Shown here: one piece after another, positions 10,011 through 25,521 of the stretch
How the letters are laid out: each line of letters opens with the position of its first letter
How positions within the stretch are numbered: the stretch's first letter is position 1
Assembly: GCA_041690395.1 (NCBI GenBank)
Contig: JAWLHJ010000006.1
Location: 294,530-358,529 of the forward strand
DNA: 64,000 bases
Direction of reading: 5' to 3'
Origin: Longimicrobiales bacterium
Lineage (GTDB): Bacteria > Gemmatimonadota > Gemmatimonadetes > Longimicrobiales > Gaopeijiaceae
Program-made: the position numbers and the translations under genes
Notes under the pieces: model-generated
What the model was told of the DNA's origin: nothing
Databases searched by the model: none
The model's input: only the letters and a program-made list of their open reading frames with translations

Positions 10011-10877
10011 ATGACGCGTTTACTCCGAGCCGGCCTGGTGACGGGCCTTTCGCTCACGCTCGTGAGCGCTGAGCCGTCGGCCGTGCGCGGGACCGACGCG
10101 GCGGCTTCGGAGGGCGTCGGCGAGCTCGCCGGAAGCGCGCCGCGATCCGGAGCGCCGGCCGAGACCACGCGCCCTGTCTCCCGGGCGGCCGACTTCGAGC
10201 GCCCGGGCAGGCACGCCTTCTACTGGACGCGCGGTGCCTACTCGGACGGCGGAGGCGGCTGGGGTTGGGGGCGCCGGAACGCCTGGGCGACCGACTATCC
10301 GAAGAGCGACATCCAGTTCGTGACGGTCCTACAGCGCCTTGTCCGGCTCGACGTCTTCCAGGAGGAGAACGCCGTTCGGCTGGACGACCCGATCCTGCGA
10401 CACTTCCCCGTGCTCTACATGGTGGAGGTCGGTTACATGGACCTCGGCGACTCGGAGGTCGAGGCGCTCAGGGGCTTCCTCGATTCCGGCGGCTTCCTGA
10501 TCGTCGACGACTTCTGGGGTGCGCGCGAGTGGGCGGTGTTCGAGGACAACATCACGCGTGTGCTCCCCGACAAGCCCATCGTCGACTTGCCACTCGAGCA
10601 CCCCGTCTTCAGCGTCTTCTACGACATCGACGAGGTGAAGCAGGTGCCTGCGCGGGGACGTGGTGTCCGAGGCCGGCCCACCACGCAGTGCAGGGGCTGC
10701 GAGGCCACCGTCCGGGGCATCTTCGACGACGACGGGCGGCTGATGGTCATCATCAACTGGAACACCGACCTCGGCGACGCCTGGGAGTGGGCCGAAGACC
10801 CCTACTATCCCCTCGAGTACTCGACGTACGCCTATCAGATGGGCGCGAACATGATCGTCTACGCGATGAGCCACTGA
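10011..10877 (+). CDS. DUF4159-like protein, exported
   Basis: WATDYPKSD, LRGFLDSGGFLIVDDFWG, HPVFSVFYDI, NTDLGDAWE, MGANMIVYAMSH; N-terminal signal-like segment. Confidence 0.85.
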   Translation: MTRLLRAGLVTGLSLTLVSAEPSAVRGTDAAASEGVGELAGSAPRSGAPAETTRPVSRAADFERPGRHAFYWTRGAYSDGGGGWGWGRRNAWATDYPKSDIQFVTVLQRLVRLDVFQEENAVRLDDPILRHFPVLYMVEVGYMDLGDSEVEALRGFLDSGGFLIVDDFWGAREWAVFEDNITRVLPDKPIVDLPLEHPVFSVFYDIDEVKQVPARGRGVRGRPTTQCRGCEATVRGIFDDDGRLMVIINWNTDLGDAWEWAEDPYYPLEYSTYAYQMGANMIVYAMSH

Positions 10878-10905
10878 TGCGGGAGCTTCGATACGGTGGC
10901 CCACG

Positions 10906-13191
10906 ATGAGCAGTCTGTTCGAGCTCCTCTTCAAGTACCGCCCGCTCGTCTTCGAGCAGGGCGACTTCACGTTCGCCGCGCCTGGAAACGTACGCGTGAT
11001 GGTCCTGGTCGCCGCGCTGCTCGCCATCGGCGCGATCGGCACCTATGCGCTGGTCCGGGGCCGCAGCACGCCCACCGAGCGGGGCGTCATGGCCGGCCTC
11101 CGTGTCGGACTGGTGGGGCTCGTGGTCTTCGCGCTTCTGCAGCCGACGCTGGTCGTCTCGACCGTGGTTCCGCAGCAGAACTTCCTCGGGGTGCTGATCG
11201 ACGACTCACGCAGCATGGCGCTGGCCGACGCCGACGGCTCGCCGCGGAGCGACTTCGTGACGACGCAGCTGTCGGCCGGGGAGGGCACGCTCGTCGACGC
11301 CCTCTCGGAGCGCTTCGTCCTCCGCTACTTCCGCTTCTCGGACGTCGCGAGGCGCGTGGGTTCGCCGGCGGAGCTCGGGTACGCGGGCCCACGGACCGAC
11401 CTGGCGACCGCGCTCGACGCGGCCCGCCAGGAGCTGTCGGGTGTCCCTCTCTCGGGCCTCGTGGTCGTGACGGACGGCGCCGACACCGGCGACCGTCCCA
11501 TCACGGAGGCCCTGGTCCCTCTGCAGGCCGGCCGGATCCCGGTCTTCACGGTCGGGCTGGGCGAAGAGGTGATCCGCCCGGACATCGAGGTGGGCCGGGT
11601 GGAGCTTCCGCGCGCGATTCTGGCCGGCAGCACTGTGCTGGTCGATGTCATGGTGACCCAGCACGGCATGGGACGGTCGAGCGTCCCACTCATCGTCGAG
11701 GACGACCGGCGGATCCTGTCGGAGGAGTCGATCGAGCTCGGTCCCGACGGGGAGCCCGTCGTCGCCAGGGTCTCCTTCCAGCTCGAGGAGCCGGGCCCCC
11801 ACCGCGTCCGCTTCCGGATTCCGCCTCAGGAGGGGGAGCGGGTCGACCGGAACAACGCACGTGAGGTGCTCGTCGAGGTCCGCGGGGAGCGGGAGAAGAT
11901 CCTCTACTTCGAGGGCGAGCCCCGCTTCGAGGTGAAGTTCACACGCCGCGCCGTCGAGGAGGACGAGAACCTCCAGCTCGTCGTGCTCCAGCGGACCGCC
12001 GACAGCAAGTTCCTGCGCCTCGCCGTCAGCGACAGCACGGAGCTCCAGTACGGCTTCCCCACGAGCCGCGAGGAGCTCTACCGCTACCGGGCCCTCGTGC
12101 TCGGAAGCGTCGAAGCGTCGCACTTCACGTTCGACCAGCTCGCGATGATCGCCGACTTCGTGTCCGAGCGGGGCGGCGGACTGTTGTTTCTCGGGGGCCG
12201 TGACGCTTTCGCCGAGGGCGGCTGGGCCGGAACGCCGGTGGAAGCGGTCATGCCCGTGGTGCTCGACCAGCCGACCGGCGGGGCCGACGGTTTCTTCTCC
12301 GAGGTCTCGGTCGGGCCGACGCCGGCGGGGCTGGCGCACCCCACCGTCCAGCTCGACGCGCCGATCGAGGACGTGGCCGACCGGTGGAGCGCGCTGCCAC
12401 CGCTCACCATCGTGAACCGCCTCACCCGGACCAAGCCCGGTGCGACCACGCTCCTGACCGGAGCCTCGCCGGACCTGACGCCGGACCAGGTGGTGTTGGC
12501 GTTCCAGCGGTACGGGAGGGGGAAGGCCGCGGCGCTCACCGTGCAGGACTCCTGGCTCTGGCAGATGCACGCGGACGTGCCCGTGGAGGACCAGAGCCAC
12601 GAGGCGTTCTGGCAACAGATGCTCCGCTGGCTCGTGGACGGCGTGCCCACGCCGGTGGCGGCCACCGTGGCGCGGGAGCGCGTCGATCCGTCGTCGTCCG
12701 TTCGGATTTCGGCCGCGATCGCGGACTCGACGTACATCGAGGTCAACGACGCCTCGGTCACCGCTCGCGTGACGACGCCCACCGGAGCCATCGAGGAGAT
12801 CCCGCTCGGGTGGACGGTCGAGCGGGACGGCGACTACGCCGCGGAGCTGCGCCCGGTCGAGGAAGGCGACTACGAGGTGGAGATCATCGCGGAGCGCGAC
12901 GGTGTCCCGATGGGCTCGTCACGAACCTACTTCCGGGCGGGTCCGGGCGACGACGAGTTCTTCGGCGCCGGGCGCCGCACCGCGTTCCTCGAGCGGATCG
13001 CGACGGAGACCGGAGGACGGTCCTACACGCCCGCGACCGTCGCCTCGCTGCCCGAGGACATCGCGGTCACGGGCGCCGGGGTCACGCTCGTCGAGGAGCG
13101 CGACCTGTGGGACATGCCTGCGCTCTTCCTGCTGATCCTACTCCTCATGGGCGCCGAGTGGGGCTTCCGTCGCATACGGGGGCTCGTGTGA
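10906..13191 (+). CDS. membrane protein with vWA, Ig-like and class I glutamine-amidotransferase-like domains
   Basis: N-terminal TMs; MIDAS DDSRSM and VVVTDG; DFVSERGGGLLFLGG; QRYGRGK; C-terminal TM ending EWGFRR. Confidence 0.85.
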   Translation: MSSLFELLFKYRPLVFEQGDFTFAAPGNVRVMVLVAALLAIGAIGTYALVRGRSTPTERGVMAGLRVGLVGLVVFALLQPTLVVSTVVPQQNFLGVLIDDSRSMALADADGSPRSDFVTTQLSAGEGTLVDALSERFVLRYFRFSDVARRVGSPAELGYAGPRTDLATALDAARQELSGVPLSGLVVVTDGADTGDRPITEALVPLQAGRIPVFTVGLGEEVIRPDIEVGRVELPRAILAGSTVLVDVMVTQHGMGRSSVPLIVEDDRRILSEESIELGPDGEPVVARVSFQLEEPGPHRVRFRIPPQEGERVDRNNAREVLVEVRGEREKILYFEGEPRFEVKFTRRAVEEDENLQLVVLQRTADSKFLRLAVSDSTELQYGFPTSREELYRYRALVLGSVEASHFTFDQLAMIADFVSERGGGLLFLGGRDAFAEGGWAGTPVEAVMPVVLDQPTGGADGFFSEVSVGPTPAGLAHPTVQLDAPIEDVADRWSALPPLTIVNRLTRTKPGATTLLTGASPDLTPDQVVLAFQRYGRGKAAALTVQDSWLWQMHADVPVEDQSHEAFWQQMLRWLVDGVPTPVAATVARERVDPSSSVRISAAIADSTYIEVNDASVTARVTTPTGAIEEIPLGWTVERDGDYAAELRPVEEGDYEVEIIAERDGVPMGSSRTYFRAGPGDDEFFGAGRRTAFLERIATETGGRSYTPATVASLPEDIAVTGAGVTLVEERDLWDMPALFLLILLLMGAEWGFRRIRGLV

Positions 13192-14237
13192 GACGGCTGC
13201 GGCGAACCATCCGGACCGCATTGCTCCCCGGCGCGGCCGCGCTGGCCGTCCTGGCCGCCGCGCCCATCGCCCCGTCGGCGACCGCCTTCGAGCTCGAGGC
13301 GCAGGCGCGCACGCGAGCGCTGGTCGTGGTCGGGCTGGGCGGAACGACGGAATACCGGGAGCGCTTCAACGAACAGGCGCGCACGCTTCGGGAGGGTCTC
13401 GTCGAGCAGCACGGCCTCGACCCGGGCGACGTCGTCTACCTCGGCGAGCGAGTGGAGATCGATCCGGAGGTCATCTCGGACCGCGCCACGCGCGAGAACG
13501 TGCTCGGGGTGCTCGAGCGGTTCGCCGCCGCGTCGGACCCCGAGGACCGCGTGCTGGTGGTGCTGATCGGCCACGGGACGTCCGGCGCCGGGGGAGAAGC
13601 GTTCAACCTGCCCGGCCCGGACATCGGCCCCGACGATCTGGCCGAAGCTCTCGCCGCGTTCGGCTCGACGCCCGTCGCGTTCGTGCACACGGGAAGCGGT
13701 AGCGGCGCCTACCTGGAGCCGCTGGCGGGGCCCGACCGTATCGTGATCACGGCGACCCGAACCGGGCGCGAGTTGAACGCGACGCGCTTCGGAGAGCACT
13801 TCGTGGCGGCGCTGTCGGGCGAGGGCGCCGACATCGACCGGGACGGCCGGATCTCGCTGCTGGAGGCATACACGTACGCCCGTGACGAGGTCGCGCGGCA
13901 CTACGAGAGCGAGAACCAGATCCAGACCGAGCACGCGATGCTCGACGACGACGGAGACGGGAGCGGCACGCACGAGGCCGGCCCGGACACACCGGACGGA
14001 CGGCTCGCGAGCACGTTCGCGTTCGGAGGCCGCGTGCAGACGGACGCTCCCGAGACCGACGATCCCGAACTGGCCCGACTCTATGGGGAGCGCGCGGAGA
14101 TCCAGGGTCGCATCGAGGAGCTGAGGGCGCTGTCGGGATCGCTGGACGAGGACGTCTACCTCGCCCGGATGGAGGAGCTGCTGGTCGAGCTCGCGCTGAA
14201 GAACCGCGAGATCGCCGCAGCAGGAGGCGGGCGATGA
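13188..14237 (+). CDS. exported caspase/C13-fold protein with Ser at the catalytic Cys position
   Basis: GTG overlaps the upstream TGA; ATRENVL..DRVLVVLIGHGT..VAFVHTGSGSG..IVITAT..ADIDRDGRISLLEAY. Confidence 0.7.
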   Translation: MRRLRRTIRTALLPGAAALAVLAAAPIAPSATAFELEAQARTRALVVVGLGGTTEYRERFNEQARTLREGLVEQHGLDPGDVVYLGERVEIDPEVISDRATRENVLGVLERFAAASDPEDRVLVVLIGHGTSGAGGEAFNLPGPDIGPDDLAEALAAFGSTPVAFVHTGSGSGAYLEPLAGPDRIVITATRTGRELNATRFGEHFVAALSGEGADIDRDGRISLLEAYTYARDEVARHYESENQIQTEHAMLDDDGDGSGTHEAGPDTPDGRLASTFAFGGRVQTDAPETDDPELARLYGERAEIQGRIEELRALSGSLDEDVYLARMEELLVELALKNREIAAAGGGR

Positions 14238-16906
14238 GCGGCGCACGTCGGCGGTCCCCGCCCGGGCGGAGGACCACACGGATCGGCGGCGGGCTGGCGC
14301 TCGTTGCGGCGGTCCTCGCCTGGTTGCCGGCGACCGCCGGAGCACAGGCGACGTCGGACGCCAGGGCCGCACTCGACACCGGCGACTACGAGGAGGCGAT
14401 CGCGGGCTTCACGCGCGCGGTTCGCGCCGACCGGACGGCCACCGAGGCCCGGATCGGGCTCATGGAGGCGCTCCTCGCCACGGGCGAGTACGAGAGGGCC
14501 GTCGAGATCGGCGAGGATGCGCCGGCACCGTCCGCGGTCGGTTATCACCTCGGCGAGGCTCTGCTCGCGACGGGACGACGCGACGAGGCCGAGGCCGCCT
14601 TCGAGGGAACGGCCTCGACGGCAAATCGCTGGAGCCTCACCGCCGAGGCCGCGTTGGCGCGCTCGCACTTCGAGCGCGGCGCCATCGAAGAAGCCACGCG
14701 CCGCTTCGACCGCTTCATCGACGTCTACAACGCGTCGGCCGGCCGGCTGGGAGCGCTCGACCTCGTCGCCGTGGGTCACGCCGTCGCCTTCTTGGGGCGC
14801 GAGCGCCCCTCGATGTTCCAGGACGCCCTGCGCGCCTACGACGAAGCCGCGGACCGCGACCCGGCCGTCCTCGACGCCAGGGTCTCGGCGGGGGACCTCT
14901 TCCTGGCGAAGTATTCGAGCCCGGAAGCCAAGACGGAGTACGAAGCGGTCCTGTCCCGGAACCCGAACCATCCGGGCGCGCTCTTCGGCATGGCGCGGGC
15001 GCTCGAGTTCGACGGCTCCGCCGAGTCGGGGGATTACCTCCGGCGGCTCTTCGAGGTCAACCCGAACCACGTCGAGGCCCGGGCGCTCAGGGCTCGTCAG
15101 CTGCTTTCACGCGGCGACTGGGACGAGGCCCGGGCGGAGATCGAGCGGGCGCTGGCGGTGAACCCGCGCGCCCTCCCCGCGCTGACGGCGCTCGCGGGCC
15201 ATCACTTCGTGACGGGCGACGACGCCGCCTTCCGCGACGCCCGTGCCGAGGTGCTCGCCCACAACCCTCGCTACGCGGTCATGGATGCGACGCTCGCGGA
15301 GCTCGCGGTGCAGACCCGGCGCTACGCGGAGGCCGTCGAGCGCGCGGAGGCCGCGGTCGCGCTGGATTCCGCCGCCTGGGAGGCCTGGGGGCTCCTCGGC
15401 CTCAACCGCTTGCGCATCCGGGAGATCCCGGCCGGGCGCGAGGCGCTGGAGCGCGCCTTCGCGGGCGATCCGTTCAACCCGTGGTTCAAGAACACGCTCG
15501 ACCTGCTGGACACCTTCGAGCGGTTCGAGACCCGGGAGACCGAGCACTTCGAGCTCTTCGCGCGCGACGACGAGGCGGAGCTCCTCGCGACCTATCTGGC
15601 GCCCCTCGCGGAGGAAGCCTACGCGGCTCTCGCCGCCCGCTACGGCTACGAGCCCACGACGCCCATCCGGGTGGAGCTCTACCCGAGCCACGCCGACTTC
15701 TCGGTCCGCACCCTGGGTGAGGCCGGCCTCGGTGCCCTCGGTGTCAGCTTCGGCCCGGTCGTGGTCATGGACGCGCCCTCGGCACGCACCCTGGGCGAGT
15801 ACAACTGGGCGTCGGTCTTCTGGCACGAGTTGGCGCACTCGTTCCATCTGGGCATGACCGACCACCGGGTGCCGCGGTGGTTCTCGGAGGGGCTGGCGGT
15901 CCACGAGCAACGGAAGGCCCGTCCCGGGTGGGGACATCGTCCGACGCCCAGCTTCCTGACGGCGCTCCGTGACGGGCGCCTCAAGGCCGTGAGCGAGCTG
16001 AACGACGGCTTCATGCGTCCGGACTACCCGGAGCAGGTGGTACACTCCTACTACCAGGCTTCGCTCGTCTTCGAGCTCATCGAAGACCGGTGGGGCTTCG
16101 ACGCCATCCGGGCGATGCTCGACGGGCACCACCGCGGCGAGGAGCCGGAGGCGGTTCTCGAGGCAGTGCTCGGGATGTCCCCCGCTGACTTCGACGCACT
16201 CTTCGAGAGTCATCTGGACCAGCGCTTCGCGCGGGTGCTGCGGGGGCTCCCCGGCCCGGGAGCGCGCCCCGGCGCCGACGCGAGCCTGGCCGAGCACGAA
16301 GCGTTCGTGGCGTCGCGCCCGGACGATTTCGTCGCCCGCCTCGCTCTCGGGGCGCGCCTCGTCGAGGCCGGCCGCCTGGACGACGCCGAGCGGCATCTAC
16401 TCGCGGCCGCGGAGATCTTCCCCGAATACGTGGGCCCCGACGCGCCGCATGTACAGCTCGCGGCCGTCCATCGCCTGCGGGGGAACCCGGAACGGGCGGC
16501 GGAGAGCCTTGCCCTCCACGATGCCCTGGACGAAGCGAGCTATGCGACCCGCGTCGAGCGCGCGGAGCTGCTCCGGGACGTCGGACGCCCCGCCGAGGCC
16601 GCCGAGGCGCTCCAGGAGGCGGCGCTCGTCTGGCCGTACGAGATCGACCTCCACCGTGAGCTCGCCGACCTCCTCGCGGAGCTCGGTGACCACGAAGGAG
16701 AGGTGCTCGAGCGGCGGGCCGTCGTGGCCCTGCGGCCTACCGACCAGGCCGAAGCGTATTACCTACTGGCCAGGGCGGAGGCGAACGCCGGGGACGCCAC
16801 GTCCGCGCGCCGCTCGGTTCTCCGCGCGCTCGAAGTGGCGCCGAACTACGACGAGGCGCTCGAGCTGCTGCTGGAGCTCCGCGGAGGCGGGGGCGGCGAG
16901 CCATGA
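14234..16906 (+). CDS. TPR-repeat protein with central peptidase MA/gluzincin domain
   Basis: signal peptide; many TPR-like repeats (ALAVNP, ALEVAPN); HELAH plus PRWFSEGLA. Confidence 0.85.
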   Translation: MSGARRRSPPGRRTTRIGGGLALVAAVLAWLPATAGAQATSDARAALDTGDYEEAIAGFTRAVRADRTATEARIGLMEALLATGEYERAVEIGEDAPAPSAVGYHLGEALLATGRRDEAEAAFEGTASTANRWSLTAEAALARSHFERGAIEEATRRFDRFIDVYNASAGRLGALDLVAVGHAVAFLGRERPSMFQDALRAYDEAADRDPAVLDARVSAGDLFLAKYSSPEAKTEYEAVLSRNPNHPGALFGMARALEFDGSAESGDYLRRLFEVNPNHVEARALRARQLLSRGDWDEARAEIERALAVNPRALPALTALAGHHFVTGDDAAFRDARAEVLAHNPRYAVMDATLAELAVQTRRYAEAVERAEAAVALDSAAWEAWGLLGLNRLRIREIPAGREALERAFAGDPFNPWFKNTLDLLDTFERFETRETEHFELFARDDEAELLATYLAPLAEEAYAALAARYGYEPTTPIRVELYPSHADFSVRTLGEAGLGALGVSFGPVVVMDAPSARTLGEYNWASVFWHELAHSFHLGMTDHRVPRWFSEGLAVHEQRKARPGWGHRPTPSFLTALRDGRLKAVSELNDGFMRPDYPEQVVHSYYQASLVFELIEDRWGFDAIRAMLDGHHRGEEPEAVLEAVLGMSPADFDALFESHLDQRFARVLRGLPGPGARPGADASLAEHEAFVASRPDDFVARLALGARLVEAGRLDDAERHLLAAAEIFPEYVGPDAPHVQLAAVHRLRGNPERAAESLALHDALDEASYATRVERAELLRDVGRPAEAAEALQEAALVWPYEIDLHRELADLLAELGDHEGEVLERRAVVALRPTDQAEAYYLLARAEANAGDATSARRSVLRALEVAPNYDEALELLLELRGGGGGEP

Positions 16907-17757
16907 GCGGACTCGGACGGTACGGACTCGTGGCATGGGCGCTAGGTGGCGCGGCGGCGGTCGGCGCCGTTGCGGTCAGCGCGGGGGCGATCGGCGCGCT
17001 GACGCTCGGGCTCCCAAGCCCCGAGGCGGGGGTCGGGGCCGCGTCGTCGGCCCGCCACCAGGCACCCTCCGCCCCGCAGGAGATGACCATGCCCTACGAC
17101 GGCCGCCACCAGTTCGTGCGCATCCGATACGAGCCGCGGGGCCGCGGCGGGTTCGGGGGCTTCGGCCGCGGAGGTCGCGAGCCCATGTGGGCCCACGACT
17201 ACCCGAGGGCCGACCGCAACTTCCTCAAGATCATCGAGGAGACCACGCACCTCCGGACCCGCCCGGACGGGATGAGCGTCCTCACCGCCGACGACCCACG
17301 CCTCTTCCTGCACCCCGTGGCGTACATCGTCGAGGTCGGGGCTTGGGACCCGTCGGACGCCGAAGCGGAGGCCATGGGGGCGTACCTGAGCAAGGGCGGC
17401 TTCATCATCGTCGACGACTTTCGCGGCCGGTTCGCCCTCGACAATCTGGCGTACCAGGTCGACCGGATGCTCCCCGGGAGCCGGCTGATGCCGCTCCCGC
17501 CGGACCACCGGATCTTCGACTCGTTCTTCCGCATCATCCCCGACCAGGTCATTCCGCCCTACGGGAACGAGCCGCCGGTGTGGCTCGCGGTCTACGAGAA
17601 CAACGACCCGAGCCGCCGCATCCAGATGGTCGTGAACTACAACAACGACATCGGCGACTACTGGGAGTTCAGCGATTACGGATACTACCCGATAGACCTC
17701 TCGAACGAAGCGTACAAGCTCGGCGTCAACTACGTGGTGTACGCCTACACGAACTGA
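16903..17757 (+). CDS. DUF4159-like protein (second paralogue)
   Basis: WAHDYPRAD, YLSKGGFIIVDDF, HRIFDSFF, NNDIGDYWE, LGVNYVVYAYT. Confidence 0.85.
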   Translation: MSGLGRYGLVAWALGGAAAVGAVAVSAGAIGALTLGLPSPEAGVGAASSARHQAPSAPQEMTMPYDGRHQFVRIRYEPRGRGGFGGFGRGGREPMWAHDYPRADRNFLKIIEETTHLRTRPDGMSVLTADDPRLFLHPVAYIVEVGAWDPSDAEAEAMGAYLSKGGFIIVDDFRGRFALDNLAYQVDRMLPGSRLMPLPPDHRIFDSFFRIIPDQVIPPYGNEPPVWLAVYENNDPSRRIQMVVNYNNDIGDYWEFSDYGYYPIDLSNEAYKLGVNYVVYAYTN

Positions 17758-17819: not shown

Positions 17820-18860
17820 TTGACCGACGACGCGATCGGAACGCTCACCATCGAGGACGCGGACGACGTCGCCCTGGCCGACCGCCTGAAGCGCGGCCGC
17901 GAAGAGGTCATCGGCGAGCTCAGGAAGCTCATCATCGGGCAGGAGGAGGTCATCGAGCAGGTGCTCCTGACCCTCTTCGTGGGCGGCAACAGCCTCCTCA
18001 TGGGCGTTCCCGGGCTGGCCAAGACGCTGCTCATCCATACCGTGGCCCAGGTGCTCGACCTGAGATTCTCGCGCATCCAGTTCACGCCGGACCTCATGCC
18101 GTCCGACATCACGGGCACCGACATCATCCAGGAAGACGCGCAGACGGGACGCCGCGAGATGGTCTTCGCGCCGGGCCCGGTCTTCGCGAACATCGTCCTC
18201 GCCGACGAGATCAACCGGACGCCGCCCAAGACGCAGGCCGCGCTGCTCGAGGCGATGCAGGAACACCGCGTGACCGTCCAGGGACGCACCTACACGCTCG
18301 AAGAGCCGTTCTACGTCTTCGCGACCCAGAACCCCATCGAGCTGGAAGGCACGTACCCCCTCCCCGAAGCGCAGCTCGACCGCTTCATGTTCGAGATCGT
18401 CATCGAGCATCTCTCCGAGGAGGAGGAGCTCGAGGTAGTGAGGACCACCACCGGGATCCTCGACCCGAAGTTCGGCCATGCGATCACCGGTCCGGACCTC
18501 GTCGCCTTCCAGAAGCTCGTGCGCCGGGTGCCGGTCTCCGACTCCGTTCTGCGATACGCGGTCGGGCTCACCCGGGCCAGCCGCCCGTCGCCGAACGGCG
18601 AGACCCCGGACTTCGTCAAGAAGTGGATCGCCTATGGAGCCTCCGTCCGGGCCGCGCAGTACCTGGTCCTCGGGGCCAAGGCCCGCGCGCTGACGCAGGG
18701 CCGCTACCACGTGACCTTCGAGGACATCCGCGCGCTCGCGCACCCCGTGCTGCGGCACCGGGTGCTCACCAACTTCCACGCCGAGTCGGAAGGCCGGACC
18801 TCCGGGGAGCTCATCGACATGCTCCTGGAAGCCGTGCCTGTCCCGTCCTCGGGCATGTAG
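17820..18860 (+). CDS. MoxR family AAA+ ATPase (TTG start)
   Basis: GVPGLAKT, RIQFTPDLMPSDITG, ADEINRTPPKTQAALLEAM, ATQNPIELEGTYPLPEAQLDRF; GGAGA before TTG. Confidence 0.95.
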   Translation: MTDDAIGTLTIEDADDVALADRLKRGREEVIGELRKLIIGQEEVIEQVLLTLFVGGNSLLMGVPGLAKTLLIHTVAQVLDLRFSRIQFTPDLMPSDITGTDIIQEDAQTGRREMVFAPGPVFANIVLADEINRTPPKTQAALLEAMQEHRVTVQGRTYTLEEPFYVFATQNPIELEGTYPLPEAQLDRFMFEIVIEHLSEEEELEVVRTTTGILDPKFGHAITGPDLVAFQKLVRRVPVSDSVLRYAVGLTRASRPSPNGETPDFVKKWIAYGASVRAAQYLVLGAKARALTQGRYHVTFEDIRALAHPVLRHRVLTNFHAESEGRTSGELIDMLLEAVPVPSSGM

Positions 18861-18868
18861 GAGGACCG

Positions 18869-19786
18869 GTGACGGCCAGAGCTCGGACCGCCGGAGGCGG
18901 CGCCAGGTTCCTCGACCCGGGCGTGCTCGCCCGTATCGGAAACCTGGAGCTCCTCGCGCGCACCGTGGTGGACGGGTTCCTGACGGGGCTACACCGCTCG
19001 CCCTACCTCGGCTTCAGCACCGACTTCGCCGAGCACCGCGCGTACATGCCGGGCGACGACGTGCGGCGGATCGACTGGCGGCTCTTCGCGCGTACCGACC
19101 GGCATTACATCAAGCTCTTCGAGGCGGAGACGAACGCGAACGTCTCCATCCTCCTCGACGTCTCGCGGTCCATGAGCTACGGCAGCCACGAGGTCACGAA
19201 GCTCGACTACGGCCGCTACCTGGCCGCGTGCCTGGGATATCTGTCCAACCGGCAGCGCGACCGGGTCGGGCTGGTCACCTTCGACCACGAGCTCGTCGAG
19301 TACCTCCCGCCATCCATGCGGACCCCGGACACCATGCTCCACCTCCTGGACCGCGTGGATCCGGGCCGCCCCGGCGAGCTCGCCCCACCGCTGCTCCGGG
19401 CCACCGAGCTTCTCGGCCGGAAGGGGATCGTCATGCTCGTGTCCGACCTCTACGAGAATCCCGAGGACGTGCTCGCGGCGGTGGGTCCACTGCGCGCGCG
19501 CGGCCACGACGTCATCGTCTTCCACGTGCTCGACCCGATGGAGCTCGAGTTCTCGTTCGAGGGCGCCTCGGGCTTCGAGGATCTCGAGACGGGTGAGCAG
19601 ATCCCGGTCGTGCCGGAGCGGGTGAAGGCCGGGTACCGCCGGCTCATGGACGAGCACCTCGAAACGCTCGCGAAGCGCTTCAGCGACAACCGGATCGACT
19701 ACCTGCTGCTCGACAGCTCGAAGCCGCTCGACGACGCGCTCTTCCGGTACCTGTTGGCCCGTGAGCGCATGAGGACGGCGAGATGA
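18869..19786 (+). CDS. DUF58 domain protein
   Basis: GLHRSP..STDFAEHRAYMPGDDVRRIDW, DVSRSM, LVSDLY; GGAGG before GTG. Confidence 0.93.
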   Translation: MTARARTAGGGARFLDPGVLARIGNLELLARTVVDGFLTGLHRSPYLGFSTDFAEHRAYMPGDDVRRIDWRLFARTDRHYIKLFEAETNANVSILLDVSRSMSYGSHEVTKLDYGRYLAACLGYLSNRQRDRVGLVTFDHELVEYLPPSMRTPDTMLHLLDRVDPGRPGELAPPLLRATELLGRKGIVMLVSDLYENPEDVLAAVGPLRARGHDVIVFHVLDPMELEFSFEGASGFEDLETGEQIPVVPERVKAGYRRLMDEHLETLAKRFSDNRIDYLLLDSSKPLDDALFRYLLARERMRTAR

Positions 19787-21906
19787 GCTTCCTCGTTCCG
19801 CTCTTCCTCATCGGGCTCGCGGGGGTGGCGATCCCCATCGCGATCCACCTCACGCGGCGCCAGCGCCGGAACGTAGTGCGCTTTCCGTCGCTCATGTTCC
19901 TGGAGAAGATCCCCTACCAGGAGCAACGACGCCGCCGGGTCCAGCACTGGTTCCTGCTCCTTCTGCGGGCGCTAGCGCTCGCGCTGATCGTGTTCGCCTT
20001 CGCGCGTCCGTTCCTGGACCGTTCCGACCTCGTGGCCGGCACCGCGACCGGACCCCGTGAGGTCGTGCTCCTCGTGGACCGGTCGTACAGCATGGAGATC
20101 GGTGACCGGCTGGAGCGCGCCCGCGCCGAGACCGCGGACGTGTTGGCCGGCATGGGACCCCTCGACCGCGCCAGCCTGGTGGCCTTCGACCGGAACGCTA
20201 CCGTCCTCGTGCGGTCCACCACCGACCGTGCGCGGCTTCTGTCCGTGCTCGACACGGTCGTCGCCGGCTCGGACGTGACGCGCTTCGGGCCAGCGCTCCG
20301 CGTGGCGCAGACGATCCTCGAGGAGTCGGAGCTCCCGAACGGAGCGGTCTATCTGCTGAGCGACTTCCAGCGCACGGGGTGGGCGGCCGACGAGGGTGTG
20401 GGTCTTCCGGCGGGCTCGGAGTTCGTGCCGGTCGCGCTGGGGGACGCGGCACCGGAGAACGTCCAGATCGCGGGGCTCTCGCTGCCGCGCTCCGTCGATG
20501 CGGGGCGGGAGCGGGTGACGCCCACGGTCCGGCTCGTCCGCCGCGGAGGCTCGGAGCCGATCGAGGTGCCTGTCACGCTGGAGATCGACGGCCAGCCCAT
20601 CGGGACCGAGACGGTCGAGCTGGGCGGCGAGGGGGCCGCGACCGCCGTCTTCCCGCCCGTGACCGTATCGCGTCCACACACGCGGGGCACGGTCCTTATC
20701 CCCACGGATGCCGTGCCGGCCGACGACCGGAGGCACTTCGTCCTCTCGCCGGGATCGGTGCTACCCATCCGGGTCGTGGGCGCGCCCGGCGGCGGCGAGG
20801 ACCCGAACCTCTATCTGGAGCGGGCACTAGGCATCAGCCAGGACGGCCGGTTCGAAGTCACGGCCCGCCGCGGGAACGGGCTCGCGGCTTCGGATACCGA
20901 AGGCGTCTCGGTTCTGGTCCTGAACGACGTCCGTATCGACGGGGGCGCGGCCGAGCGGCTGCGCGCCTTCGTGGAAGAGGGGGGTGGGCTGCTGGTCGCC
21001 ATGGGTGAGAACGCGGCCTGGCCGGCGTCGGCGCTCGACCTTCTTCCGGGAGCTCCCGGCGCGCCCCGCGACCGCGAGGCCGGTCGCGGGGCCCGGCTCG
21101 GGCAGCTCGCCTACGACCACCCGATCTTCGAGGCCTTTTCCGGGCCACGGAGCGGGGACTTCGGCAACGCCCGCTTCTTCAGGGCCCGCGACGTCACGGT
21201 GTCGGACTCGGCCCAGGTCCTCGCCCGCTTCGACGACGGATCGGTGGCGCTGGCCGAACGGACCCTCGGGCGCGGACGGGTCCTCCTCTGGACTTCGACG
21301 CTCGACGGGTTCTGGAACGACCTGGCGCTGCAGCCGGTCTACCTCCCCTTCGTCCACCGGATCGCCGAGCATCTCGCGGGACGGACCGAGGCGCAGCAGG
21401 CGTTCACCGTCGGGCAGGTCCTCGACCTCGCCGACCCGCGGGCGCTCGAGGCCGCCGGCCTGGTCTCGTCCGCGGCGGAGGGACTGACCGAGGGTGCCGA
21501 GCAGGTCGCGCTCACTCCCTCCGGAGCGGGCGTGCGCATCCCGGCCGATGCCGAAACCCGCTACCTGACGCTGACCGAGCGGGGCTTCTACACGATCCGT
21601 CCACCGGGCGCCGAGCCGGACCGGCCGTTCGTCGTCGCGGTCAACGTCGATGTGGAGGAGTCGGATCTCGAGCGGATCGAGCCCGACGACGTCGCGCTGC
21701 AGGTGCGGGCGGTGACGTCGTCGGCCGAGGGAGACGGGAGTCGGCCCGCCGGGGCGGAAATGCTGGTCCGGGAGGATCAAGAGCGCAGGCAGTCGCTCTG
21801 GCGTTGGATCCTCGCGGCGGCACTCGGACTACTCATCATGGAGACGGTGCTCTCCAATTGGGTGTCACGGAGAAGCACGATGGCGTCCCGCACGACCGAG
21901 GCATAA
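19783..21906 (+). CDS. BatA-domain / vWA membrane protein with GATase-like domain
   Basis: PIAIHL..FPSLMFL..LLLLRALALALIVFAFARP; DRSYSM, YLLSDF; LRAFVEEGGGLLV; C-terminal TM. Confidence 0.9.
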   Translation: MSFLVPLFLIGLAGVAIPIAIHLTRRQRRNVVRFPSLMFLEKIPYQEQRRRRVQHWFLLLLRALALALIVFAFARPFLDRSDLVAGTATGPREVVLLVDRSYSMEIGDRLERARAETADVLAGMGPLDRASLVAFDRNATVLVRSTTDRARLLSVLDTVVAGSDVTRFGPALRVAQTILEESELPNGAVYLLSDFQRTGWAADEGVGLPAGSEFVPVALGDAAPENVQIAGLSLPRSVDAGRERVTPTVRLVRRGGSEPIEVPVTLEIDGQPIGTETVELGGEGAATAVFPPVTVSRPHTRGTVLIPTDAVPADDRRHFVLSPGSVLPIRVVGAPGGGEDPNLYLERALGISQDGRFEVTARRGNGLAASDTEGVSVLVLNDVRIDGGAAERLRAFVEEGGGLLVAMGENAAWPASALDLLPGAPGAPRDREAGRGARLGQLAYDHPIFEAFSGPRSGDFGNARFFRARDVTVSDSAQVLARFDDGSVALAERTLGRGRVLLWTSTLDGFWNDLALQPVYLPFVHRIAEHLAGRTEAQQAFTVGQVLDLADPRALEAAGLVSSAAEGLTEGAEQVALTPSGAGVRIPADAETRYLTLTERGFYTIRPPGAEPDRPFVVAVNVDVEESDLERIEPDDVALQVRAVTSSAEGDGSRPAGAEMLVREDQERRQSLWRWILAAALGLLIMETVLSNWVSRRSTMASRTTEA

Positions 21907-21939
21907 GCTTCAAGTAGCGACCACGAGAGAGGCACGGAC

Positions 21940-24900
21940 ATGACGGATTCAGAGAGGAACGTCGCGGACAGGAAGCTCGAGAGGCTCGTCCGCGGTGTGC
22001 GCGCCCGATGGAAGCTCCGCCTCGTCCTCCGCGGCCTGGCGTGGACCGCCGGCCTCTCCCTCATGGTCCTGCTGGGGTCGGCGGTCGTGCTCGAGCAGGC
22101 CCGCTTCTCCGAAGACGCGCTACTCTGGCTGCGGATCGTGACCTGGGGCACGCTCGCGCTCACCTTCGTCCTGCTCGTCGTGCGACCTCTCCTTCGGCCG
22201 GTCACCGACAGCCAGGTCGCGCTCTATCTCGAGGAGCACGAGCCGTCGCTCGAGCACGCCGTGGTGAGCGCGCTGGAGGCGTCCCGGGCCACGGGCTTCT
22301 CGCCGGCACTGACCGGGCGCGTCCTCGAGCACGCGCTCGAACGGGCGGAGTCCGTGCAGAACGGCCGCCGCATCGAGCAGTCGGCGCTCTACCGGTTCGG
22401 CGGTGCGCTGACCGGGATCGTCGTCGCGGGGCTCGTCTTCGCGCTGCTCGGGCCGACCTCTGTGCGATACGGCGTGAGCGCGCTCCTGTCGCCGACCCGT
22501 GACGCGGCCGAGGTGAACCCCTACGCCGTCCTCGTCGAACCCGGTGACGCCGCGATCGCACGCGGCTCCGACCTCGTGGTGAAGGCGTCACTCCGTGGCT
22601 TCGAAACAGGCGAGGTCTCGATCTTCACGAGCTCGGGCGAGGAGGCCGCCTTCAGACGCCTGAGCATGCTTCCCGACGACGCCGGTGCCTTCGAGGTCAT
22701 GCTCCTCGGCGTCGACCAGGAGACCCGCTACTTCGTCGAGGCTTCGGGCGTCCGGTCGCCCACGTTCACGATCGAGGTCGCCGAGCTCCCCTACGTCGGA
22801 GAGCTCGACCTCACGTATCACTTCCCCGCCTACACCGGTCTCTCCCCGCGGGTCGTCGAAGGCGGCGGCGACGTCGCCGCCCTCGCGGGCACCGAGGTCG
22901 AGCTCCGCATCTCACCGACCATCGCGACGCCCGGGGGGCAGCTTCTCGTGGACGGGGAGCCGGCCGGAGCGCTGGAGCTCGCGGAGGATGGCACGTTGAC
23001 CACCCGGTTCACCGTGGAGCGTCCCGGGCTGTACGCCATCGAGCTCGCCCGTGCGAACGGCGACCTCGTCCCGGCGTCGCCCGAGTACGCCATCGACGTC
23101 CTGGAGGACCTGGAGCCGTCCATCCGCTTCACGCGCCCGGGCCGCGACATGCCTGCCTCGCCCATCGAGGAGGTCTACCTCGAGATGGAGGCGATCGACG
23201 ACTACGGCATCGGCGATGTGCGGCTCGTGTACTCCGTGAACGGAGGCCCTGAGGATACCGTGGCGGTCTTCGGCACGTCCGGCGCTCCGCTCGCGGAGGT
23301 GTCCGCGGGGCACACCCTCTATCTCGAGGAGTGGATGCTGGAGCCGGGCGATCTCGTCTCGTACTACGCGCTCGTCCGTGACAACCGCGGCCTCGGCACG
23401 CGCCGTGTCGTGGCCAGCGACATGTTCTTCCTCAACGTGCGTCCGTTCGAGCGGGCTTACCGCGAGGCGGAACAGCAGGGCGGTGGCGGCCAGGGTGGCG
23501 GCCAGCAGCCCGGCGCCGAGACCGCGCTCTCGGAGATGCAGCGGCAGATCATTTCGGCGACCTTCAACCTGATCCGCCAGCGGGACAGCTACACGCCCGA
23601 CGAGTTCGCCGAGAACGTGGTGAGCGTCGCGCTGGCGCAGGAGCGTCTGCGCGGCCAGGTGCAGACACTTCTCGAGCGGATGGGCAACAGGGGTCTGAAC
23701 GAGATCGATCCTGGATTCCGGGATGTCTCGGCGGTCCTGCCGCAGGCCTCGGAGGCGATGACCCGGGCTCAGGAGCGGCTCGACGAGCAGGAGCTCCAGG
23801 AGGCGATCCCCGCCGAGCAGGAGGCGCTCCGATTCCTGCAGCAAGCCGAGGAGACGTACGAGCGGTACGTCACCCAGCAGGAGCAGGGCGGTGGGGGCGG
23901 AGGCGGAGGGGGCAGCCCCGCCGCCGACGACCTGGCCGACCTGTTCGAGCTGGAGCTCGACAAGCTCCAGAACCAGTACGAGACCGTTCGGCGGGGTCAG
24001 CAGCAGCAGGCGGACGCCCAGGTCGACGAGCTCCTCGAGCAGCTTCAGGAGCTCGCGCGCAGGCAGGAGCAGGAGGCCGAGCGGCAGCGGCGGCGCGCCC
24101 AGGCCGGCGCACAGGGAACGCCGGGCGCGGGCGCGTCCCAGCGGAACCTCGCCGACGAGACCGAAGAGGCCGCCCGGCAGCTCGAGCGGCTCGCCCGTGA
24201 GCGCTCCGACGCCCGGCTCCAGGAGACCGCCCGTGCCATGCAGGAAGCGGCCGAGGCCATGCGGCGGTCCGCATCCGAAGGGGGGAACTCCGCGTCCGCG
24301 GGTGCCGGCGAGGCGCTCCGGCGGCTGGAAGACGCGCGTGAGTCCCTGGAGGACTCCCGCGCGGGGCGGGCCGGTCGCGACGCGCAGGACGCCTTGCGGC
24401 GGGTCGACGAGCTCCAGCGACAGCAGCGGGACGTTCAGAGCGACGTGCGCGAGCTCCCGGCGTCGGGGCCGGACCGCCGTGAGGCGATCGACCAGCTCCG
24501 CGAGCGGAAGAATCAGATGACCGAGGCCGTGCGCCAGCTCGAGCAGGATCTCGACCAGGCGGCGAGCTCCGCGCAGGCCGAGAACCCTCAGGCAGCACGG
24601 CGCTTGCAGGAAGGCGCCAACCGGATCCGCGAGAACAGCCTGAAGGAGAAGCTCCAGTACTCACGCGGAACCATCGAGCAGTGGGATCCCCAATCGGCGC
24701 TTACTCTCGAGCTCGGCATCGAGGGCGACCTCCAGGCGCTCCGGGACGAGCTCGAGGGCGCGCTCGAGGCCGCCGGCAGCAGGGAGCGGAATCCGCTCAC
24801 TGAAGCATTGGACGAGACCCGGGAGCTCGTGCGCGGAATGGAGGCGATGCAGCGCCGTCTCACCGAATCGCCCAACCAGGAGCGAGGCGGCTCCGGGGAG

Positions 24901-25521
24901 CCCGGGGAGGAGGGCGAGCCTGGCGCCGAGGGTCAGCCCGGTGCCGAGGGCCAGGAGGGTCGGCCCGGCGAGGGAGGCCAGCCCGGCCAGGAGGGTCAGC
25001 AAGGTGCGTCCGGTGAGCAGGCCGGAAGTGGCCAGCAAGGCGCGGAGCAGGGCGGCGGAAGCGGTGGCGGCGGCGGCCCCGAGCGAGGACTCAGGCCGAG
25101 CGGCGGACCCGACGAGGTCGGCCCCTGGAGCGGTGGCGGCCCCACCGGCGGGAGCCCGCGGACCTATTCACCGGAGGAGATCCGGCAGTACCGGAACGAG
25201 CTCCAGGAGCGGGCGGGACAGGTGCGCGACCTGCGCGACCAACTCCGGGAGGCGGGTCGCCCGGCCGAGGACCTCCAGGCCGTCCTGGAAGCGATGGAAC
25301 GGCTGGCCAGCGAGGGGGCGTTCGATGATCCGACGCAGGCGGCGCAACTCCAAGCCGACGCCGTGGACGCGCTCAAGCGTCTGGAGTTCGGGCTACGCCG
25401 CGAGGTCGAGGGCGAGGTGCCGCAGCGTGGCACGCTGACCGGCTCGGACGACGTGCCGGAGGGCTATCGCGCGCTGGTGGAGGAGTATTACCGGACGCTG
25501 GCGCGGGGCGGAGGATCCTAG
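21940..25521 (+). CDS. large DUF4175-like membrane-anchored protein (Ig-like domains, long coiled coil, Gly-X-Y tract)
   Basis: 3 N-terminal TMs, beta-rich middle (AIDDYGI), Q/E/R-rich helical region, C-terminal VPEGYRALVEEYYRTLA. Confidence 0.8.
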   Translation: MTDSERNVADRKLERLVRGVRARWKLRLVLRGLAWTAGLSLMVLLGSAVVLEQARFSEDALLWLRIVTWGTLALTFVLLVVRPLLRPVTDSQVALYLEEHEPSLEHAVVSALEASRATGFSPALTGRVLEHALERAESVQNGRRIEQSALYRFGGALTGIVVAGLVFALLGPTSVRYGVSALLSPTRDAAEVNPYAVLVEPGDAAIARGSDLVVKASLRGFETGEVSIFTSSGEEAAFRRLSMLPDDAGAFEVMLLGVDQETRYFVEASGVRSPTFTIEVAELPYVGELDLTYHFPAYTGLSPRVVEGGGDVAALAGTEVELRISPTIATPGGQLLVDGEPAGALELAEDGTLTTRFTVERPGLYAIELARANGDLVPASPEYAIDVLEDLEPSIRFTRPGRDMPASPIEEVYLEMEAIDDYGIGDVRLVYSVNGGPEDTVAVFGTSGAPLAEVSAGHTLYLEEWMLEPGDLVSYYALVRDNRGLGTRRVVASDMFFLNVRPFERAYREAEQQGGGGQGGGQQPGAETALSEMQRQIISATFNLIRQRDSYTPDEFAENVVSVALAQERLRGQVQTLLERMGNRGLNEIDPGFRDVSAVLPQASEAMTRAQERLDEQELQEAIPAEQEALRFLQQAEETYERYVTQQEQGGGGGGGGGSPAADDLADLFELELDKLQNQYETVRRGQQQQADAQVDELLEQLQELARRQEQEAERQRRRAQAGAQGTPGAGASQRNLADETEEAARQLERLARERSDARLQETARAMQEAAEAMRRSASEGGNSASAGAGEALRRLEDARESLEDSRAGRAGRDAQDALRRVDELQRQQRDVQSDVRELPASGPDRREAIDQLRERKNQMTEAVRQLEQDLDQAASSAQAENPQAARRLQEGANRIRENSLKEKLQYSRGTIEQWDPQSALTLELGIEGDLQALRDELEGALEAAGSRERNPLTEALDETRELVRGMEAMQRRLTESPNQERGGSGEPGEEGEPGAEGQPGAEGQEGRPGEGGQPGQEGQQGASGEQAGSGQQGAEQGGGSGGGGGPERGLRPSGGPDEVGPWSGGGPTGGSPRTYSPEEIRQYRNELQERAGQVRDLRDQLREAGRPAEDLQAVLEAMERLASEGAFDDPTQAAQLQADAVDALKRLEFGLRREVEGEVPQRGTLTGSDDVPEGYRALVEEYYRTLARGGGS

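Follow-up and report, generated by a model that had tools for sequence, protein, structure and literature searches.

The nine co-oriented genes G1 to G9 of the window, i.e., the whole stretch of 64,000 nucleotides that was analysed, constitute an enlarged variant of the Bat/RL3499-type operons and not a categorically new system. By analogy with MxaRSACKL of methylotrophs, we tentatively favor the reading that they encode a trans-inner-membrane remodelling or maturation machine powered by MoxR and DUF58, with the predicted zinc peptidase G4 as its client or effector. All nine open reading frames are located on the + strand at 10011..25521, where the original prediction had placed them. Of its gene assignments (DUF4159, vWA-GATase-like, caspase-fold, TPR-gluzincin, DUF4159, MoxR, DUF58, BatA-vWA-GATase-like, DUF4175-like), Pfam matched DUF4159 twice, TPRs, AAA_3, DUF58, BatA with VWA_2, and DUF4175, and structure models supported the folds of G2 and G3:

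10011..10877, + strand: G1, DUF4159 protein, predicted exported, accessory (Pfam E 2e-44; relative of PDB 4i66, E 4e-20)
10906..13191, + strand: G2, TM hairpin, predicted split vWA domain with inserted Ig, GATase1-like and Ig domains, C-terminal TM (AF2 pLDDT 87.6)
13188..14237, + strand: G3, predicted exported protein of caspase/legumain fold, probable pseudo-protease, with C-terminal helical hairpin (Foldseek, HMM)
14234..16906, + strand: G4, predicted gluzincin zinc peptidase with TPRs on both sides, predicted exported (TPRs by Pfam; Peptidase_MA_2 at E 6e-4, below its cut-off)
16903..17757, + strand: G5, second DUF4159 protein, predicted exported, accessory (Pfam E 1e-39; 34% identical to G1)
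17820..18860, + strand: G6, MoxR AAA+ ATPase, predicted cytoplasmic (Pfam AAA_3 E 1e-61, AAA_lid_2)
18869..19786, + strand: G7, DUF58 vWA protein, predicted cytoplasmic MoxR adaptor (Pfam DUF58 E 7e-46; DxSxS and D193 retained; Gly169 at the Thr position of MIDAS)
19783..21906, + strand: G8, BatA N-terminal TM hairpin, Arg-rich FPSLMFL loop (predicted cytoplasmic), vWA, Ig, GATase-like, Ig, C-terminal TM (Pfam BatA E 5e-21, VWA_2, DUF4350; TIGR02226)
21940..25521, + strand: G9, DUF4175-like protein, three TMs at the N-terminus, a domain predicted cytoplasmic (82-152) and a large body predicted periplasmic (Pfam E 2e-15; TM scan; positive-inside counts)

As had been claimed, neighboring genes overlap by 4 nt at 13188 (GTGA) and at 14234, 16903 and 19783 (ATGA); the remaining gaps within the operon measure 28, 62, 8 and 33 nt. 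G3 and G7 start with GTG and G6 with TTG. With the nearest in-frame start codon taken as the start, the four overlaps recurred among relatives at 62/67, 64/70, 53/62 and 35/60 junctions, respectively. An apparent DUF58-BatA fusion in locus L056 turned out to be an out-of-frame overlap. No sigma-70-like promoter was found at the operon, and the terminator search yielded a single terminator-like match, residing inside G9, which is fewer than in shuffled sequences. One soil metatranscriptome shared 9% of words and gave, at 85% likeness, short contigs only, most of them at most 90-95% alike and the longest listed of about 520 nt.

Seven genes (G2-G4 and G6-G9) followed the same order in every informative locus anchored on the peptidase gene G4. 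Where the flanks were long enough, these loci contained G2 in 72/72, G3 in 77/77, G6 in 66/66, G7 in 64/64, G8 in 63/63 and G9 in 60/60 cases. The seven-gene set was found together in many Gemmatimonadota and Acidobacteriota, the gene order being kept across two phyla far above chance. The predicted conserved neighborhood thus holds for the peptidase and caspase-fold genes, as G3 and G4 stayed with the MoxR core in all informative G4-anchored loci, and has to be narrowed for the DUF4159 genes. G1 was adjacent in 56/66 G4-anchored loci, but in only 3/20 phylum-sampled Gemmatimonadota loci, and G5 in 66/70 and 13/20, respectively; both genes are accessory. Among 121 Gemmatimonadota genomes, G2 and G3 occurred in an identical set of 40, of which 39 also possessed G9, while approximately two thirds of the sampled genomes were devoid of the cluster. 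Split clusters were observed in two genomes (G083 and G090), in which G1-G3 lie 20-150 kb away from G4-G9, and G4 was displaced in genomes G184 and G211. In 2/20 Acidobacteriota loci, G4 was missing from the locus and the other eight genes were retained. The cultured Gemmatirosa kalamazoonensis harbors G2-G9 in order on plasmid NZ_CP007129.1. One copy of the cluster resides on a 1.1-Mb plasmid. The genome of the window contains a second core of the same type adjoining TldD/TldE, a different metallopeptidase. Literature searches, largely confined to freely accessible papers, disclosed no paper on the nine-gene operon.

Bat operons and the bat loci of spirochaetes (Borrelia bb0170-0176, Leptospira batABD) share with the operon MoxR, DUF58, a BatA TM hairpin with periplasmic vWA domain, a second TM-anchored vWA paralogue and a TPR protein. 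Here, the MoxR, DUF58 and BatA genes are adjacent and G2 represents the BatB-like paralogue; neither BatD nor an SH3-bearing BatE was matched by Pfam or NCBIfam in the nine proteins at E 0.01. Compared to Bat operons, the Ig-GATase-like-Ig inserts, DUF4175, the two DUF4159 proteins, the pseudo-caspase and the gluzincin are extras. The RL3499-RL3502 (cmd) operon of Rhizobium leguminosarum reportedly encodes MoxR, DUF58, BatA combined with DUF4159, and a GATase-like membrane protein, and to go by the title of the paper, it is said to be linked to envelope and morphology defects. Compared to this composition, DUF4159 stands alone here, with G3, G4 and a DUF4175 gene inside the operon as additions. 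For RL3501, a table records a growth defect on TY (PMC4255674).

Other MoxR systems are less similar in composition. In methylotrophs, MxaR-S-A-C-K-L comprise a MoxR ATPase and the vWA proteins MxaS, C and L, and all are required for Ca2+ loading of a periplasmic metalloenzyme, since deletion of mxaR, S, A, C, K or L led to periplasmic methanol dehydrogenase without Ca2+ (PMC12276312). A methanol dehydrogenase gene was not present among the nine genes or the flanking genes scanned. MxaRSACKL serves as a comparison of how the machine may work, the likeness being considered at the level of the MoxR/vWA class. In NorQ/NorD and CbbQ/CbbO, a MoxR hexamer and one vWA adaptor remodel the target, NorQ/NorD acting via MIDAS on acidic residues of a membrane protein (PMC9976466). 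Those systems act wholly from the cytoplasm and possess a complete MIDAS; in the operon, the cytoplasmic MIDAS is devoid of Thr, and another two, both complete, are predicted to lie outside. A common MoxR-vWA core with membrane or peptidase partners also occurs in the MoxR-vWA-transglutaminase-like (YebA) operons, Arc2 of P. aeruginosa and actinobacterial Esr, but the partner genes differ, as TGL, kinase, FHA and beta-propeller are missing here. Of the traits of MoxR-vWA-beta-propeller/Esr systems (beta-propeller sensor, kinase/FHA, toxin effectors), none was found in the operon.

Export signals were judged from hydropathy alone (threshold 19 residues). Most of what had been claimed on signal and TM segments was upheld: MoxR and DUF58 are predicted inside (hydrophobic N-termini in 2/61 and 0/65 sequences, respectively), and the vWA, peptidase and DUF4159 domains outside. 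The exception is G1 of the window, which falls below the threshold; of its orthologues, 47/55 pass once the threshold is shortened and the start chosen leniently. Neither a Tat nor a lipobox consensus was found in G1, G3, G4 and G5, and no outer-membrane protein was identified in the operon. As these data gave no sign of a reach to the outer membrane, the label 'trans-envelope' was abandoned in favor of the safer term 'trans-inner-membrane'.

The two membrane-anchored vWA proteins G2 and G8 are full-length paralogues (hhalign 99.7%, E 5e-27). G2 gave no informative Pfam match, and its features were located with the help of the structure model:

11200..11214, + strand: MIDAS motif DxSxS of G2 (D99-S103), completed by T164 and D190 (DxSxS, T/S164 and D190 in 69/69 each)
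12973..13074, + strand: residues 690-723 of G2, distant C-terminal piece that would close the vWA fold directly before the C-terminal TM (vWA match ranges end at 709-726; helices 692-701 and 712-718)

In VIA, the vWA matches of G2 span residues 89-724 with approximately 150-180 aligned residues, the match to BatB (3ibs) showing a Z of 18.7 and an rmsd of 3.4 over 179 residues. According to the model, the vWA domain is predicted to be split around the Ig-GATase-like-Ig insert and tethered to the membrane at both ends. The GATase-like fold of the insert was recognized in G2 by structure match (residues 330-581, Z 22.1 to 3rht and 22.0 to 2gk3) and in G8 by profile alignment. Since the nucleophile-elbow Cys of class I glutamine amidotransferases is missing from the elbow columns of all 69 G2 and 61 G8 sequences, both domains look like scaffolds. 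The top Foldseek matches of G2 were chains of the oligosaccharyltransferase complex (E 1e-9, TM 0.32-0.35), which we take to be the non-catalytic OST48/Wbp1; as such chains were absent among the best 50 VIA matches, this likeness was regarded as one of architecture only. DUF4159 belongs to the class I glutamine-amidotransferase-like clan (PMC4702930); its hhalign comparison with G2 was not significant (0.3%), and an Atlas search with G1 returned nothing usable outside DUF4159. G8 exhibits the full MIDAS (D99/S101/S103/T166/D194) in 61/61 sequences. Its predicted cytoplasmic loop contains on average 9.4 K+R and no conserved acidic residue. For the BatA-type protein BB0173, a periplasmic vWA domain has been demonstrated (PMC5700661).

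On the cytoplasmic side, G6 carries Walker A, Walker B, sensor-1 and Arg-finger motifs and scored 38.6 bits with bpMoxR as against 206.9 with AAA_3. Three intact DxSxS motifs had been predicted, and these are indeed invariant in G2 (69/69), G7 (66/66) and G8 (61/61), the window included. The MIDAS of G7 is nevertheless incomplete, because its Thr position is occupied by Gly in 64/66 close loci (G16/S9/T7/A1 across 33 wider loci). As the mutation T534V abolishes the function of NorD (PMC9976466), the absence of this Thr in the DUF58 proteins of the clade weakens the case for a classical MIDAS grip at the docking step. A candidate site for docking was discerned in G9:

22231..22242, + strand: acidic patch E98-E99-x-E101 in a predicted cytoplasmic loop of G9, candidate DUF58/MoxR docking site (acidic in 100%, 100% and 98% of 54 sequences)

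In a wider set, E98 was kept in 28/33 and E99 in 30/33 sequences. Self-BLAST revealed no internal repeat in G9, and its Atlas look-alikes (0.93-0.94) were unnamed or DUF4175 at 13% of members.

The original prediction also named two protease-fold proteins. The caspase fold of G3 was supported by its model, and G4 shows the zinc-site motif of gluzincins; only G4 looks catalytic. The relevant sites are:

13572..13574, + strand: His129 of G3, position of the clan-CD catalytic His (77/77, 40/40, 150/150)
13695..13697, + strand: Ser170 of G3 at the catalytic Cys position (S 123, P 17, A 7, T 2, N 1, C 0 among 150 representatives)
13830..13865, + strand: predicted EF-hand-like Ca2+-binding loop of G3, D215-E226 (strict pattern 125/150)
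15824..15889, + strand: HExxH (531-535) and third zinc ligand E552 of G4 (H531, E532, H535 and E552 in 74/74 and 33/33)

With a single-sequence model of G3 (pLDDT 66), Foldseek matched metacaspases, caspases and legumain (best E 1e-4; 23 matches at E <= 0.001), and in the HMM comparison its GHG motif aligned to metacaspase-4 (E 0.0013); Peptidase_C13 remained below the cut-off (16.6 vs 22.8 bits), and a PDB sequence search with G3 alone gave no match. Position 170, which we take to be that of the nucleophile, was placed by the register of the metacaspase/legumain motif and not by superposition. A Cys was never encountered there (0/150, 0/77, 0/40), S or T being present in 77/77 close loci. Within the loop, D215 (150/150), D/N217 (150/150), D/N219 (149/150) and E226 (149/149) are nearly invariant. 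The invariant His, the replacement of the nucleophile Cys by Ser, Pro or Ala and the EF-hand-like loop indicate that G3 is probably a pseudo-protease. It resembles the pseudo-metacaspase TbMCA4 in its caspase fold, the retained His and the Ser in place of Cys (PMC3220528), but is bacterial and predicted exported, tolerates Pro and Ala at the site and has the EF-hand-like loop and helical hairpin. No longer fused form of G3 was found among 7991 candidates, which is weak evidence. Two longer representatives (P0173 and P0246) go on into sequence resembling TPRs, perhaps as artefacts of read-through. G4 alone in the operon looks like an active protease, its catalytic site being predicted intact. 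Besides the zinc site, Y606 is kept in 74/74 sequences. Peptidase_MA_2 scored below the cut-off (20.1 vs 32.4 bits), a PDB sequence search with the peptidase region gave no match, and a search with the G4 profile disclosed solely TPR proteins among the best 60 matches listed.

In the maturation machine that we tentatively propose, the force would come from MoxR in the cytoplasm and DUF58, its predicted adaptor: their pull on G8/G9 would enable the vWA domains of G2 and G8, predicted periplasmic, to remodel or mature exported clients. As in NorQ/NorD, one DUF58 would be bound by a MoxR hexamer, and this assembly may dock at the conserved BatA loop that G8 is predicted to expose to the cytoplasm, at the acidic patch of G9, or at both. 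The paralogues G2 and G8, whose structure, topology and pairing are predicted, would form a pseudo-symmetric pair with a complete MIDAS in each. According to the model of G2, the final helices of its vWA domain pass directly into the C-terminal TM helix, so that movement in the membrane could switch the MIDAS grip on an acidic residue of the client. G3 may serve as a Ca2+-binding and peptide-binding pseudo-protease adaptor, and G4 would be either a dedicated client for metal-loading/activation or an effector trimming what is held; the DUF4159 proteins may be optional partners or clients. The second core, beside TldD/TldE, fits the idea that the enzyme can be exchanged, whether as client or as effector. 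Counting against maturation are the DUF58 MIDAS without Thr, the G8 loop without a conserved acidic residue, the split and rearranged clusters, the many Gemmatimonadota genomes lacking the cluster and the fact that deletion of batABD in Leptospira biflexa caused no phenotype (PMC3557215).

The same anatomy suits ATP-coupled periplasmic proteolysis or quality control nearly as well. Exported proteins would then be caught by the vWA pair together with G3 and the TPRs and be cut by G4 as a permanent part of the machine, and MoxR would reset the trap. This reading, which is near the original prediction, is possible but doubtful. The invariant catalytic residues of G4, its translational coupling to G3 (64/70) and the TldD/E genes adjoining the paralogous core are in line with it, and a degradation system of MoxR, vWA and a transglutaminase-like peptidase has been proposed (PMC3495828). 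However, the peptidase domain is cytoplasmic in that proposal, whereas the membrane would separate the predicted exported G4 from the ATPase. Moreover, threading of the target is not assumed for NorQ-type MoxRs (PMC9976466), and the two Acidobacteriota loci from which G4 alone has moved away speak against a permanent subunit.

It is unlikely that the periplasmic modules sense a foreign ligand or damage to the envelope and report this via G8/G9 to MoxR/DUF58, as in Esr or an Arc2-like defence. MoxR-vWA pairs do relay surface signals in Esr (PMC13622651) and confer protection against a toxin in Arc2 (PMC8926400), and the patchy, all-or-none distribution and the copy on the 1.1-Mb plasmid would fit, but Pfam revealed no kinase, FHA, regulator or beta-propeller gene in the operon. 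Unlike the sensors of conflict systems, the exported parts do not diversify, 103 positions of G4 and 149 of G2 being conserved at >=97%. That the genes are merely co-regulated envelope genes whose products share no complex is very improbable; splits and relocations occur, but order and translational coupling are kept in two phyla and co-occurrence is all-or-none. Hardly to be expected is an active Ser/His peptidase or transamidase G3 in a machine ligating or anchoring proteins, loosely like GPI transamidase, since the ever-present His129, the prevalence of Ser (123/150; S or T throughout the close loci) and a GPI transamidase chain at Foldseek rank 39 are opposed by Pro, Ala or Asn at the site in 25/150, by the inactivity of TbMCA4 despite His and Ser, and by the lack, as of 2011, of any known caspase-fold enzyme with a Ser nucleophile (PMC3220528).

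MoxR-DUF58-BatA operons are widespread and tied to envelope, stress and enzyme-maturation phenotypes. For the maturation machine, the operon offers handles at the residue level, namely E98/E99 of G9, the FPSLMFL loop of G8, the two complete predicted periplasmic MIDAS sites, E532 of G4 and the Ca2+ loop of G3. A bolder and rather unlikely version is that G2 and G8 work as a bacterial integrin-like inside-out switch, in which MoxR would pull via the membrane on the doubly tethered split vWA domains and toggle periplasmic MIDAS sites that, together with the Ca2+-binding pseudo-caspase, metal-load or activate exported enzymes. If true, such a switch would provide a general mechanism for MoxR-DUF58-BatA operons as a class, with Bat, cmd and MxaRSACKL among them.

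The operon on the plus strand (window 10011..25521) is real and a variant of an already known kind. Nine ORFs, 4-nt overlaps at 13188, 14234, 16903 and 19783 and three DxSxS motifs, all claimed by the original prediction, could be read from the sequence. The remaining intergenic gaps measure 28, 62, 8 and 33 nt; the upstream gene is divergently oriented, 660 nt separate the operon from the start of a downstream ABC-F gene, and the GC content (68-72%) is similar to that of the remainder of the window. G1-G9 were annotated by Pfam and NCBIfam searches.

Pfam/NCBIfam matches of the nine genes (window 10011..25521, plus strand, in gene order)
G1: DUF4159
G2 (TM-vWA-GATase-like): no informative match in Pfam or NCBIfam
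G3 (caspase-fold): Peptidase_C13, below threshold
G4: TPR; Peptidase_MA_2 below threshold
G5: DUF4159
G6 (MoxR ATPase): AAA_3
G7: DUF58
G8: BatA/VWA_2/DUF4350
G9: DUF4175

Close relatives bearing names are Gemmatimonadota, Longimicrobiales among them. The genes upstream of the operon (window 4458-9433) specify an alpha/beta hydrolase that is predicted to be exported, a cyclophilin and a DPP-IV-like S9 peptidase; at one fetched locus (L119) an S9 peptidase is also present 3′ of it. Window 28947-32021 contains a three-domain fusion (aminoglycoside-phosphotransferase-like, peptidase M23, class-III aminotransferase).

To the conservation of the gene set, a G4-anchored scan of GTDB genomes contributed at least 581 relatives, the best 80 loci of which were retained. 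At those with sufficient flank, which are kin and include two from one isolate, G2 (72/72), G3 (77/77), G6 (66/66), G7 (64/64), G8 (63/63) and G9 (60/60) were always co-inherited, G1 in 56/66 and G5 in 66/70. Gene order was constant except for two loci with G1 inverted and downstream. Of 121 evenly drawn Gemmatimonadota genomes, counted from match tables, 40 had a strong G2 match (one a contig-edge fragment) and six more a weak, partial one. The same 40 genomes harbored G3 immediately 3′ of G2, and 39 of them the G9 N-terminus, with one additional weak match each; about 80 of the 121 gave no match to G2, G3 or the G9 N-terminus with the queries used. Within the Acidobacteriota (phylum taken from a Vicinamibacteria genome), 22 of 101 genomes contained G3. 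Twenty Gemmatimonadota loci (out of 40) and twenty Acidobacteriota loci (out of 23) were inspected; all seven of G2-G4 and G6-G9 were present at 16 and 12 of them, respectively. Incomplete loci lay at contig ends (L106, L111, L127) or carried IS1595 after G7 (L123). In two genomes (G083, G090) the cluster was split into G1-G3 and G4-G9, in two others (G184, G211) G4 was relocated, and four fetched loci were arranged as 9-2-3, 2-3 or 4-3. The Acidobacteriota loci L129, L131, L132 and L133 exhibited a second arrangement (G9-G2-G3 or G4-G3) with a divergent G3, in which Phe follows the S-x-S motif; genome G184 combines the two arrangements with a single G4, located close to the second. In Gemmatirosa kalamazoonensis, G2-G9 keep their order and lie on a plasmid. 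In the Gemmatimonadota fetched set G1 was adjacent in 3/20 and G5 in 13/20. Since the linkage of G3 and G4 was kept while G1 and G5 were often absent, the proposed conservation beside the MoxR core held for the two protease-fold genes, whereas the DUF4159 genes are accessory.

The core (MoxR-DUF58-BatA) is of the Bat/RL3499-3502 kind, judged by what we take to be the composition of the RL3499-3502 operon. The literature search, covering main texts outside subscription journals, found no publication on the nine-gene form. A CenR table of Rhodobacter lists a MoxR and a TIGR02302 gene among its entries (PMC9275681).

Judged from hydropathy alone, with a leniently chosen G1 start codon, the N-terminus contains a hydrophobic segment in G2 (54/54), G3 (51/67), G4 (57/69), G5 (49/62) and G1 (47/55), compared with 2/61 for MoxR and 0/65 for DUF58. 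Positive-inside counts predict that the hairpin loops and C-tails of G2 and G8 as well as the N-terminus and residues 82-152 of G9 are cytoplasmic, the large domains lying outside. The predicted position of the G2/G8 vWA domains agrees with that of Borrelia BB0173, whose vWA was mapped experimentally to the periplasm (PMC5700661). The predicted cytoplasmic domain of G9 is acidic at E98, E99 and E146 in 54/54 sequences (wider set: E98 28/33, E99 30/33).

In the G2 structure model (50-sequence alignment, pLDDT 87.6, pTM 0.71) residues 330-581 match GATase1-like proteins (3rht, Z 22.1, rmsd 2.7, 214 aligned; 2gk3, Z 22.0). Matches to vWA domains range over about 89-723, yet only about 150-180 residues are aligned (BatB 3ibs, Z 18.7). 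We read this as a vWA domain probably split by an Ig-GATase-like-Ig insertion; residues about 690-723 would complete the fold and in the model appear to continue, through a single strand, into the C-terminal TM helix. The top three Foldseek matches were oligosaccharyltransferase chains (E about 1e-9, TM 0.32-0.35, rmsd 14), presumably OST48/Wbp1, which were absent from the 50 VIA rows for this model. G2 and G8 are paralogs (636 columns, 99.7%, E 5e-27); both possess a complete DxSxS-T-D MIDAS, the elbow Cys of the GATase-like domain was found in neither sequence, and an FPSLMFL loop exists in G8 only. DUF58 kept DxSxS and D193, with Gly at the MIDAS Thr position in 64/66 sequences (G16/S9/T7/A1 in 33 wider ones), a replacement that speaks against a classical MIDAS grip.

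The integrin I-domain is activated by pulling on its last helix, which offers an analogy for the machine proposed here. The gene content, the co-inheritance, the conserved residues and the paralogy were observed directly, folds and topology are predictions, and every interaction is inferred. We tentatively favor over all rivals that the products may form a trans-inner-membrane remodelling/maturation machine, because of two precedents. MxaRSACKL, every member of which is required to load Ca2+ into methanol dehydrogenase, is the best one for a MoxR/vWA set working on a periplasmic protein (PMC12276312), while in NorQ/NorD a MoxR hexamer uses one vWA adaptor to act on a membrane protein at its acidic residues, and the target is not threaded (PMC9976466). 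The incomplete DUF58 MIDAS, the split clusters in some genomes and the absence of a phenotype in Leptospira bat deletions (PMC3557215) count against it.

In G4, H531, E532, H535 and E552 are invariant (74/74 and 33/33), as is Y606 (74/74); this intact gluzincin site, flanked by TPR arrays, suggests peptidase activity. ATP-coupled proteolysis (cf. PMC3495828) is a possible but rather unlikely function of the operon, sensing or defence (cf. PMC13622651, PMC8926400) an improbable one, and it is very doubtful that the products form no complex.

The G3 model (single sequence, pLDDT 66) matches metacaspases, caspases and legumain, and its profile aligned the GHG with metacaspase-4. His129 is invariant (77/77, 40/40, 150/150). 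The nucleophile position, which we assigned from the metacaspase/legumain motif, is occupied by S/T in all 77 close sequences; among the best 150 of 1189 representatives (E <= 1e-30) it is S123, P17, A7, T2, N1 and never C. An EF-hand-like loop (D215-E226) follows the strict pattern in 125/150 and a second loop is rich in Asp in 94/150. Owing to the P, A and N residues, G3 was downgraded as a Ser-His enzyme; TbMCA4, with His and Ser, is inactive (PMC3220528). An active Ser-caspase ligase is the least probable reading.

DUF4159 proteins have invariant W, D-D, D, W, N and Y residues in common, match the uncharacterised structure 4i66 and were placed in a glutamine-amidotransferase-like clan on structural grounds (PMC4702930). 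Those compared here usually terminate in a conserved His (MSH/MTH), G5 of the window (16903-17757) in YTN. Out of 14 well-known control genomes only Caulobacter vibrioides contains DUF4159, so that the related alphaproteobacterial operon could be studied there in a tractable host.

Further MoxR/DUF4159 clusters reside in the same genome.

Related clusters in the genome of the window
L093:5165-16246 (G000:C4 about 19.2-30.2 kb): MoxR, DUF58, BatA, 1005-aa membrane protein fused to DUF4159, G2-like GATase-like membrane protein, TldD, TldE
L094:4578-11651 (minus strand): MoxR-less module of DUF4159, 1126-aa G9-like protein, 588-aa TPR protein, 422-aa exported protein (no Pfam match)
L095:6768-9660: lone DUF58-BatA pair, 5′ of mfd and two SurA-like genes
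L096:6962-8128: lone MoxR, about 60 kb from the L095 pair
L097:6991-8061 (minus strand): stand-alone DUF4159 gene, 51% identity to G1; a Na/Ca exchanger gene lies close by
L098:6770-10693 (minus strand): DUF4129, unknown, MoxR, DUF58; a further MoxR operon type, its layout presumably resembling Arc2

The L095 pair and the L096 MoxR might supply the halves that the L094 module lacks. The second core, with TldD/TldE, indicates that the enzyme adjoining MoxR-DUF58-BatA varies.
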